A stretch of DNA of 64,000 nucleotides from an uncultured Clostridium sp. Its GTDB lineage: Bacteria > Bacillota > Clostridia > TANB77 > CAG-508. The position numbers and the translations under genes are program-made. The notes beneath the pieces are model-generated. The model searched no databases. It saw nothing but the letters and a program-made list of their open reading frames with translations, and was not told the origin of the DNA. Shown here one piece after another: positions 6,870 to 26,950 of this stretch (the first letter of the stretch is position 1; every line of letters begins with the position of its first letter). The stretch spans positions 8,116 to 72,115 of the forward strand of contig CAOJKK010000002.1 of the NCBI GenBank assembly GCA_948437895.1, given 5' to 3'.

Positions 6870-8015
6870 ATGAAAAAGAAAGTAGCAATATTTGGCTCAA
6901 CAGGTTCTATTGGAACTAGTACTTTAAATGTAATTAGAAATAATAAAGAGATATTTGAGGTTGTAACTTTAGTTGCAGGAAATAATATAGAGAGATTAAT
7001 AGAGCAAATAAATGAATTTAATCCTAAACATGTGTATATTAAGTCAGAAGAAAATAGTAAGGTTTTAAAAGATAAATTTAAAGATTTAGATATATATTAT
7101 GGAATGCAGGGAATGAGAGATATATCAAAACTAACTGATTATGATATTTCAGTATCTGCACTTGTTGGAATTGCGGGATTAGAGCCTACATATAACATGA
7201 TAAAAAATGGTAAAACTGTAGCACTTGCAAATAAAGAAGTATTAGTTGCAGGTGGAGAGTTAATTATAAACACAGCAAAAGAAAATAATGCAACACTACT
7301 TACAGTAGACAGCGAGCACAGTGCAATAATGCAATGCTTAAATGGAGAAAATAATAATCCAATAGATAAAATACTTCTTACTGCTTCTGGAGGCCCATTT
7401 TTTGATAAAGAAATAACAGAAAATATAACTGTAGAAGAAGCCTTAAATCATCCAACATGGAGTATGGGTAAAAAAGTAACAATAGATTCAGCTACAATGA
7501 TGAATAAAGGATTTGAAGTAATCGAGGCAAAATGGCTATTTGATGTAGAGCCTGAAAAAATTCAAGTTGTTGTTCATAGAAAGAGTTTAGTACATTCAAT
7601 GGTGCAATTTGAAGATGGAACAATCATGGCAAATATTGGTCCAAAGTCAATGGAAATCCCAATTGCTTATGCATTAAACTATCCTAGTAGATTAAAAAAT
7701 AATTTAGAGAAATTAGATTTGTTTGATGTAAGAACTCTTGAGTTTGAAAAACCTGATTTAGAAAAATTCAAATGTCTAAAATTAGCTTTTGAAGCTATAA
7801 AAAAAGGACACAGCTATCAAGTAGTATTAAATGCTGCTGATGAAGTATTAGTAAATGCATTCTTAAAGGGAAGAATAAAATATACAGATATTCCAAATAT
7901 GATTGAAAAAATGCTAGATATGCATAAAGCAGAAAAATTAGATACAATAGATAAAATACTAGAATTAGATAAAAGAGCAAGAGAAGAAACTGAAAAATTA
8001 ATAACTAATATATAG
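6870..8015 (+). CDS. dxr: 1-deoxy-D-xylulose 5-phosphate reductoisomerase
   Basis: KKVAIFGSTGSIGTSTL, LANKE, DSEHSA, NHPTWSMG motifs. Confidence 0.92.
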   Translation: MKKKVAIFGSTGSIGTSTLNVIRNNKEIFEVVTLVAGNNIERLIEQINEFNPKHVYIKSEENSKVLKDKFKDLDIYYGMQGMRDISKLTDYDISVSALVGIAGLEPTYNMIKNGKTVALANKEVLVAGGELIINTAKENNATLLTVDSEHSAIMQCLNGENNNPIDKILLTASGGPFFDKEITENITVEEALNHPTWSMGKKVTIDSATMMNKGFEVIEAKWLFDVEPEKIQVVVHRKSLVHSMVQFEDGTIMANIGPKSMEIPIAYALNYPSRLKNNLEKLDLFDVRTLEFEKPDLEKFKCLKLAFEAIKKGHSYQVVLNAADEVLVNAFLKGRIKYTDIPNMIEKMLDMHKAEKLDTIDKILELDKRAREETEKLITNI

Positions 8016-26204: not shown

Positions 26205-26221
26205 ATATTGTAAAAGAATGT

Positions 26222-26250
26222 TTGACAAAATAATATAAAAATAATATAAT
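26222..26250 (+). promoter_or_regulatory. consensus sigma-A promoter
   Basis: TTGACA (26222-26227), 17-nt spacer, TATAAT (26245-26250). Confidence 0.7.
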
Positions 26251-26256
26251 AAAGAA

Positions 26257-26338
26257 AACAAGGTCCACAAAATGTGGTACCATCAGGAATTGATTTTGAA
26301 TCACATCTCTAATGGTTAGCAGAGATGTGATTCTCTTT
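26257..26338 (+). ncRNA. candidate antisense small RNA (type I antitoxin-like)
   Basis: The inferred transcript runs from the consensus promoter through hairpin ggtccaca/tgtggtacc and a 10-bp terminator hairpin (26301-26330) plus ttctcttt. It is antisense to the 3' end of the 45-aa ORF. Confidence 0.45.
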
Positions 26339-26446
26339 ATATGTAATTATAGACAAAGCTATAATTAAAACAAGAGAGATGATAGCAAAAGCTATATTGC
26401 TAATTAAAGATAAAATCAATAATTTTAATAAAACTTCTTCTAACAT
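26309..26446 (-). CDS. 45-aa single-TM hydrophobic peptide (candidate type I toxin)
   Basis: MLEEVLLKLLILSLISNIAFAIISLVLIIALSIITYKENHISANH. SD gtgaggtg 5 nt before the ATG at 26446, so the longer 71-aa track start is rejected. Confidence 0.5.
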   Translation of the reverse strand: MLEEVLLKLLILSLISNIAFAIISLVLIIALSIITYKENHISANH

Positions 26447-26515
26447 ACAAATCACCTCACTTTCTTTAGAAATATGAGATGATACCACATTCTGCTTTCC
26501 TTGCTTTCTTCCAAA

Positions 26516-26544
26516 ATTATACAATTCAAAAAAATGAAAGTCAA
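26516..26544 (-). promoter_or_regulatory. sigma-A promoter for the small hydrophobic ORF
   Basis: On the minus strand: ttgact, 17-nt spacer, tataat, with a TG extension. Confidence 0.6.
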
Positions 26545-26674
26545 GAGAAAAACAAACAAAAGTTCTGAAAATATTTACGGAAATTTACAACTATGATATT
26601 ATAATATTAATTTAAATCAACAAACTTTGCTTCATGGCATTTCGCCAATAAAATTCAAATAATCAAAATAAAAT

Positions 26675-26950
26675 ATGAAAGGAATGATGAACATAGAACT
26701 AAAAAAGATAGAAGAAGGAATAATACCTATTTACGCAAATAAATCAAAAGAGAGATTAATTAATGCAAGAGAATTGCACAAAGTTTTAAAAAATAGAAGA
26801 CAATTTGCCAATTGGATAAAACAAAGAATTGAACAATATAATTTTATAGAAAATAAAGAATATATCCGCTTTAACAATTTTGTTAAAGCGGATGAAAAAG
26901 GATATGGTAACAAAACTCAAATAATAATACAAATCAATTCATTGATATAA
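26675..26950 (+). pseudogene. phage antirepressor (AntA/AntB N-terminal domain) remnant
   Basis: INARELHKVLKNRRQFANWIKQRIEQYNFIENKEY matches the AntA-type N-terminal domain. The ORF ends after about 90 aa with no continuation in any frame. Confidence 0.5.

Follow-up and report, generated by a model that had tools for sequence, protein, structure and literature searches.

In the hok/Sok system of the Escherichia coli plasmid R1 and in AapA1/IsoA1 of Helicobacter pylori, the 5′ and 3′ ends of the full-length toxin mRNA interact over a long distance and so close the molecule, with the Shine-Dalgarno sequence (SD) sequestered; the antisense RNA binds the 5′ leader or the translation-initiation region, and trimming of the 3′ end activates the mRNA. 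BsrG/SR4 has reportedly been described by Jahn and Brantl in 2013 as having a 3′-binding antitoxin which also tightens the ribosome-binding site (RBS). In this system and in TxpA/RatA of Bacillus subtilis (as well as in BsrE/SR5 and YonT/SR6), a small transmembrane (TM) peptide with a polar tail is encoded together with a convergent 3′-side antisense RNA that overlaps the end of the ORF (PMC8594479). The concept of fold-back inhibition in hok/Sok and AapA1/IsoA1 is discussed in two reports (PMC9841398, PMC6733600). Type I modules of Clostridioides difficile (CD2517.1/RCd8 and others) encode peptides of 34–59 aa, each made up of a TM segment and a charged tail, and their antisense RNAs are convergent and overlapping (PMC6563280).

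Nearly all type I toxin-antitoxin families known so far come from cultured model bacteria. The locus described here appears to be one copy of a large family found in uncultured gut Clostridia with small genomes, and no description of this module family was found in curated family collections or in the literature. The family is apparently undescribed and confined to one order of these bacteria.

Parts of the locus and its likeness to described modules

The window (the whole stretch of 64,000 nucleotides that was analysed) has a G+C content of ~26% and derives from contig 2 of a genome bin of 1.09 Mb that is 68% complete. It was found to hold a cassette of ~330 bp, in which a gene for a tiny membrane peptide converges with a candidate antisense sRNA gene (Table 1). 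A first-pass annotation had listed both promoters, the SD, a 45-aa ORF, an inner hairpin and a 10-bp hairpin with a U-tract, and a check of the sequence found every one of them where it had been placed. The toxin and sRNA promoters are the two highest scoring of 26 promoter-like sites within 3 kb. In total there are as many such sites as expected from shuffled sequence, and a promoter match by itself is therefore no evidence; chance is excluded because the whole module is conserved in dozens of genomes. The TTGAC and TATAAT boxes of the toxin promoter are invariant or almost so in 27 aligned modules, and the sRNA promoter is kept in all aligned modules, also at loci without a peptide ORF.

Table 1. 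Positions of the predicted parts of the cassette within the window.
Feature	Position	Strand	Description
Predicted toxin mRNA promoter	26516–26544	−	TTGACT-17-TATAAT; 11 of 12 consensus matches; predicted start near 26509
Toxin mRNA 5′ leader	26447–26509	−	~63 nt; holds panhandle 5′ strands, anti-SD and SD region
Panhandle 5′ strands in leader	P1 26507–26499; P2+P3 26495–26478	−	
Anti-SD	26483–26475	−	ATCATCTCA; in leader
SD region	26459–26451	−	TGAGGTGAT; in leader
SD	26460–26453	−	GTGAGGTG
Candidate toxin gene	26309–26446	−	single-TM peptide of 45 aa, MLEEVLLKLLILSLISNIAFAIISLVLIIALSIITYKENHISANH; ATG at 26446, stop TAG at 26311–26309
Hairpin 1	26301–26330	both	TCACATCTCT/AGAGATGTGA; 10-bp stem, 10-nt loop
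U-tract following hairpin 1	26331–26339	+	TTCTCTTTAT
Predicted 3′ UTR of toxin mRNA	26255–26284	−	GATGGTACCACATTTTGT (26284–26267) and CCTTGTTTT (26263–26255) complementary to 5′ leader, −38.8 kcal/mol
Weak hairpin in toxin mRNA 3′ UTR	26277–26265	−	CCACATTTTGTGG; with T-rich tail, terminator-like
Predicted antisense sRNA promoter	26222–26250	+	TTGACA-17-TATAAT; 12 of 12 consensus matches
Predicted antisense sRNA (candidate antitoxin)	26257–26339	+	~82 nt; 5′ hairpin, single-stranded spacer, terminator hairpin 1
sRNA inner (5′) hairpin	26265–26277	+	CCACAAAATGTGG

In many modules each promoter has its −35 box repeated in inverted orientation ahead of it (TTGTCAA-N7-TTGACWA; for example L022, L038 and L023, and 26208–26228 on the plus strand of the window). 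This palindrome over the −35 box could be an operator for a regulator common to both promoters.

Hairpin 1 covers the last codons and the stop of the peptide gene, as the first-pass annotation had noted (8 codons by its coordinates), and its loops in the two RNAs are fully complementary to each other. Of 49 distinct loci, 43 have a T-tract (at least six T in 9 nt) after it in the sRNA direction and only 4 have one in the toxin direction; in the toxin direction of the window copy it is followed by TTCAAAATCAATT, with no U-tract. Because the U-tract is one-sided, hairpin 1 is predicted to be the intrinsic terminator of the sRNA and, in most copies including that of the window, an internal hairpin and not a canonical terminator of the peptide mRNA. 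The earlier proposal that both transcripts share this terminator stands for the sRNA and mostly falls for the toxin mRNA. The proposed overlap of their 3′ ends is retained, although its extent is probably the whole sRNA (~82 nt) and not the hairpin alone.

At the level of sequence, the plus-strand element is an antisense RNA gene with a promoter and terminator of its own and with complementarity to the toxin mRNA, which is perfect and limited to the 3′ UTR and the last codons. Between the 5′ part of the sRNA and the toxin leader and start region, complementarity was no better than in shuffles (mean z −0.17, 27 loci). A contact at the translation-initiation region of the par/Fst or SprA1 type is unsupported, since the sRNA 5′ part has no complementarity there beyond that of shuffles.

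The layout is similar to that of TxpA/RatA and BsrG/SR4, as had been suggested, i.e., a Gram-positive type I layout in which a convergent antisense RNA overlaps the toxin mRNA at its 3′ end and extends over the last part of the ORF. It differs in that no sequence relation of peptide or RNA was detectable (Pfam, NCBIfam, and Rfam, in which no family matched within the module at E ≤ 5) and in that the present family is not prophage-borne. In addition, the present mRNA would have a conserved 5′–3′ panhandle, one strand of which is the sRNA target, and the 5′ part of the sRNA is a same-sense copy of the mRNA 5′ end. With hok/Sok and AapA/IsoA the locus would share a 5′–3′ long-distance pairing in the full-length toxin mRNA, a likeness that was obtained computationally and needs the inferred read-through of hairpin 1. 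However, the present sRNA is complementary to the 3′ strand of the long helix and not to the 5′ leader, the peptides are unrelated, and the hosts of those systems are Gram-negative.

The first-pass annotation had also pointed to the par system (Fst/RNA II of Enterococcus faecalis pAD1), which does resemble this locus in that its convergent RNAs meet at a single hairpin, in being built from repeats and in having terminator loops that are complementary. This likeness was not borne out further. The toxin is non-homologous, with no match to the Fst/Ldr family for any of 20 members in Pfam and NCBIfam even at E ≤ 10, and the present hairpin, with its U-tract on one side, is not a bidirectional terminator. 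The repeats are inverted and not direct, and for this reason the 5′ part of the sRNA looks like the toxin leader rather than being able to pair with it. The C. difficile modules, compared by description, likewise have clostridial hosts, similar peptides and convergent overlapping antisense RNAs; they are found mostly in prophages or near CRISPR arrays and often have SigB promoters, whereas the present family is chromosomal, has promoters of the sigma-70 type with consensus boxes and gave no match outside its own order.

The peptide and the predicted sRNA

Peptides of the family (35–55 aa) were found to begin with M[LVI]E[EQ] and to consist of one TM helix and a short polar tail; that of the window has an uncharged stretch of 28 residues and a maximum 19-residue Kyte-Doolittle value of 2.7. 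The start codon and the SD are kept across the family. Entropy at codon position 2 is 0.46 compared with 1.05 and 0.96 at positions 1 and 3, and the pN/pS of the ORF is ~0.64, which corresponds to weak purifying selection. Judging from this much higher conservation of position 2 and from the pN/pS value, the peptide ORF is a real coding sequence that is selected mainly for hydrophobicity. No relative of the peptide was found in Pfam, NCBIfam, PHROG or PDB even at E ≤ 10, the Pfam and NCBIfam searches having taken in 20 family members.

The subfamilies differ in how the ORF ends. In one subfamily the stop lies just before the hairpin (..IISK), in the subfamily of the window the ORF runs into the hairpin (..YKENHISANH), and in a third the same hairpin is read in another frame (..NTSLL..). 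The terminator stem CACATCTCTGC yields, in its two frames, tails with ..HISA.. (two subfamilies) or ..NTSLL.. (another), as seen for example in the window (26330–26309), L087 and L102. As the same hairpin is read in different frames, the conserved letters of the C-terminal tail are imposed by the RNA stem, and protein conservation of the tail is, on the evidence of these alignments, a by-product of RNA structure.

In several members (P0001, P0005, P0036 and others) gene callers start at an in-frame ATG within an AUGUGG box of the leader, resulting in products of 50–62 aa. The short form of the peptide is the likely product, because this leader ATG has no SD and is out of frame in the window copy. 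In L028 (G035:C2, from another family of the order) the ORF is split, the stop of MEEILTRC overlapping the ATG of a hydrophobic frame of 29 codons. The gene is either a pseudogene with a frameshift, or its two parts are read in a coupled manner; both the sRNA and the panhandle are intact at this locus.

The sRNA hairpins were evaluated in two sets of loci. In the first, pattern-seeded set 96.8% of positions were paired, with compensatory changes at 5 of 16 pairs, and in the peptide-seeded set, which is free of hairpin-pattern bias, the corresponding values were 94.5% and 12 of 16. None of 500 shuffles reached these values in either set. For hairpin 1 in the toxin-seeded sample, 10 of 11 pairs were compensatory.

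Predicted folding of the peptide mRNA and proposed mechanism

The helix formed by the anti-SD and the SD is paired at 95.5% in 27 modules and includes 3 compensatory pairs, and the ribosome-binding site is predicted to be locked by this conserved upstream anti-SD. The ends of the module form an inverted repeat (terminal inverted repeats of ~60 bp) that spans the promoters and the first ~35 transcribed bases, and the first ~30 nt of the sRNA are a same-sense look-alike of the 5′ end of the toxin mRNA. The toxin-strand 5′ end can pair with a segment downstream of hairpin 1, giving a panhandle of 27–30 bp. Its duplex energy ranges from −34 to −47 kcal/mol in 27 of 27 loci, and in other genera from −33 to −50 kcal/mol in 22 of 24 loci (z of −5 to −11 against shuffles). 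Cognate ends gave −38.7 kcal/mol compared with −32.7 kcal/mol for non-cognate ends (permutation p < 1e-4), and in helix P1 seven of the 10 pairs have changed on both sides in a compensatory manner. Where the repeat is imperfect, G.U pairs number 96 on the toxin strand and 26 on the opposite strand, and the toxin-sense duplex is more stable than that of opposite sense in 27 of 27 and 23 of 24 loci. Adding the 3′ segment lowers the predicted energy of the mRNA by ~25 kcal/mol. Hand-defined helices and per-locus duplex folding were used, as whole-module RNAalifold (408 columns) gave an implausible structure owing to indels.

On the basis of the covariation, the cognate duplex energies, the G.U strand bias and the absent U-tract, the toxin mRNA (~260 nt) in most members probably continues past hairpin 1 as far as ~26250 and folds back to form the panhandle. 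The covariation could also reflect ends that are kept alike in some other way, such as by a shared protein site, gene conversion or concerted evolution. This is made less likely by the G.U bias, although the positions behind that bias are few and inherited.

A clean switch, with the panhandle and the anti-SD helix being mutually exclusive, was considered and rejected. On folding, the SD stays mostly paired in either state (probability unpaired 0–0.21), and the predicted opening energy of the RBS shifts by ~3 kcal/mol, from 11.9 kcal/mol in the free mRNA to 14.9 kcal/mol with the 3′ UTR occupied, being higher in 25 of 27 loci. The shift is kept as a weak secondary effect.

In the proposed mechanism, the strong minus-strand sigma-70-type promoter would give rise to an mRNA of ~260 nt for the 45-aa single-helix membrane peptide, the presumed toxin, with its RBS held shut by the upstream anti-SD. 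This mRNA would pass the hairpin at the stop codon and reach the region opposite the sRNA start, so that its 3′ end could pair with its own 5′ end. From the consensus promoter on the plus strand an sRNA of ~82 nt ending at hairpin 1 would be made, and its first contact with the mRNA would be through the two fully complementary hairpin loops. The sRNA would then zip up, displacing the mRNA 5′ end from the panhandle; since its target is the 3′ strand of the panhandle together with hairpin 1, binding would have to open the panhandle. By analogy with TxpA/RatA and BsrG/SR4, the consequences would be a long duplex cleavable by RNase III, an exposed 5′ end and a somewhat tighter RBS, and the peptide would not be made as long as the sRNA is made. 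Decay triggered by the duplex is the more likely main effect in this model, because the RBS is predicted to be strongly closed in both states.

A more specific version of this mechanism is offered tentatively, and we regard it as somewhat more doubtful than not. The antitoxin would act by mimicry of a 5′ end, in that the sRNA and the 5′ end of the mRNA would compete for one segment of the 3′ UTR, and invasion of the panhandle would open a closed, protected mRNA and so set its decay and the state of the RBS from 200 nt away. No description of such a mode of type I control was found in the literature. If true, it would combine a fold-back of the hok/AapA type with 3′ antisense action of the BsrG/SR4 type. 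The model of a 3′ UTR-binding antisense RNA that controls both a distant RBS and mRNA stability is testable.

Distribution, genomic context and loss pattern

A search of the same genome for paralogs, as the first-pass annotation had advised, yielded two diverged copies on contigs 15 and 14, with DNA identities of 72% and 68%, respectively. The three copies can be aligned over the two promoters, the SD, the ORF and the two hairpins. Of 25 genomes of the genus searched with blastn, 20 contained the module, with no more than 5 copies in any one. The hairpin signature was identified at 60 places in named genome records and the module confirmed with nhmmer at 52 of these, the hosts being bins of uncultured gut Clostridia (sampled from rabbit, chicken, goat, water deer, mouse and human) and Clostridium sp. 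CAG:452; the non-Clostridia pattern matches L052, L062, L067 and L078 are without the module.

A covariance model (R1) was built from the sRNA and searched against 401 genomes of the order, which we take to be TANB77/CAG-508. Matches were obtained in 231 of them, in 33 of the 49 genera of the order and with 1–8 copies each, so the family occurs in more than half of the order's sampled genomes with up to eight copies per genome. In a class-level sample at E ≤ 1e-5, R1 matches were confined to the window's own family, and no match outside the order was obtained among ~290 sampled Clostridia genomes. A profile of the peptide detected its ORF in 36 of 61 genomes of the window's family. A search for contigs that might derive from transcripts yielded nothing but metagenome contigs of 2–6 kb.

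The first-pass annotation had placed the locus beside a phage antirepressor remnant and had regarded this as a typical neighbourhood. The adjoining ORF is real (26675–26950 on the plus strand, 91 aa, PF08346, E = 6e-14), but the setting is not typical of the family, as its paralogs lie elsewhere and searches of phage, plasmid and viral-contig collections turned up no true copy. The paralogs neighbour purM and a trmB-type methyltransferase gene in one case and an Amidase_6 gene and a V-ATPase F subunit gene in the other, and such sites are common to different species, for example adjoining trmB in G000, G024 and G006. Neither tblastn nor blastn gave a match to the module in GenBank phage records or PLSDB plasmids, and the single hairpin-pattern match among IMG/VR viral contigs was a GC-rich chance sequence without a model match. 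Members of the family are chromosomal and have been passed on by vertical inheritance, the phage remnant by the window copy being incidental.

Several minor observations concern the surroundings of the window copy. The AntA-domain ORF consists of the N-terminal domain of AntA/AntB antirepressors alone and is divergent from the toxin promoter. At the orthologous locus of G022 (L012) the upstream flank has a different sequence from that of the window. A weak match resembling the c-di-GMP-I riboswitch, immediately upstream of the toxin promoter (26576–26656, minus strand), scored 20.9 bits against a gathering threshold of 35 (E = 0.87) and differs in the same ortholog; it is probably due to chance.

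The same data bear on whether the cassette is a decayed MITE-like element of ~330 bp with terminal inverted repeats of ~60 bp, present in multiple copies and with an incidental ORF and "promoters". This reading is rejected as highly improbable. It would account for the ends being inverted repeats, the toxin-side promoter and leader matching the sRNA side on the other strand (as seen with nhmmer), and for the several copies per genome. However, copies within one genome are just 68–72% identical and the same chromosomal sites are occupied across species, as at trmB. Furthermore, mismatches within the repeats are biased to G.U on one strand, the interior has codon periodicity, and the plasmid, phage and viral collections contain no match.

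Among hairpin-seeded loci, at least six independent events have deleted either the SD together with the ORF or the gene's 5′ half and left the sRNA gene intact (L076/L099/L027/L036; L094; L043; L047; L061; L081/L082/L018/L020; and others). The toxin promoter and the first bases of the leader often remain at these loci, and several of them occupy the chromosomal site at which contig 14 has its intact copy. Two more copies have frameshifted or split ORFs (L098 and L028). Among the peptide-seeded loci the convergent overlapping sRNA is kept in 28 of 29, the exception being L124, in which the sRNA gene is lost and the toxin promoter is broken, with a 27-nt spacer. Such an asymmetry of loss is as would be predicted for a harmful gene held in check by an RNA, though it is no proof of this.

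That the sRNA gene is intact at many loci without a peptide ORF would also be expected if the plus-strand element were mainly a trans-acting sRNA with other targets, or if mRNAs from the paralogs titrated it, so that overlapping the peptide gene would be secondary. The 5′ parts of the sRNAs are very similar between paralogs, so that cross-talk or other targets are possible. This explanation is nonetheless improbable, given the convergent overlapping sRNA at nearly every peptide gene and the fact that the conserved 5′ part of the sRNA is the exact complement of an mRNA segment which covaries with the mRNA 5′ end.

The peptide could instead be a harmless small membrane protein that is tuned by a cis-antisense RNA within the same architecture, with neither toxicity nor addiction. 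We consider this unlikely, if less so than a mainly trans-acting role for the sRNA. The modules are chromosomal and syntenic with none found on mobile elements, a pN/pS of 0.64 amounts to loose constraint, and toxicity is an inferred property; all of these fit a harmless protein. It is less easily reconciled with three features that are typical of type I toxins: with diverged paralogs in 1–8 copies per genome, with an SD so heavily locked that its opening would cost ~12–15 kcal/mol, and with the repeated precise loss of the SD and ORF where the sRNA gene is kept, against one reverse case.

The reading as a type I toxin-antitoxin-like locus, which the first-pass annotation had put forward, gains support at its core from the coding-type substitutions, the conserved sRNA promoter, the covarying hairpins, the locked SD and the pattern of ORF loss with retention of the sRNA. 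In our estimation the locus is quite likely to be one copy of a lineage-specific family of this type, the proposed mechanism included, with the toxicity of the peptide presumed from comparative sequence data. The comparative data, which are unusually consistent, by themselves serve to define the predicted promoters, peptide, sRNA structure, SD lock and 5′–3′ panhandle of the family. With the model R1 and the peptide alignment (A4), small genes and sRNAs of gut metagenomes that so far lack annotation can be annotated in their hundreds.

Tandem or clustered copies were also observed, with two modules, or a module and a second sRNA gene, within 1–1.5 kb (L051, at 479–850 and 1400–1768; L120 and L121). 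In the decayed copy L065 (~7330–7500 of G001:C6, CALXNI010000006.1) the 5′ part of the sRNA is replaced by a GC-rich, near-perfect palindrome of ~100 nt (GGCTGAGCTAGCCCAAGAGGAATACAACAAAGCGCTCCACGTGC / GCACGTGGAGCGCTTTGTTGTATTCCTCTTGGGCTAGCTCAGCC), which could be a small inserted element.
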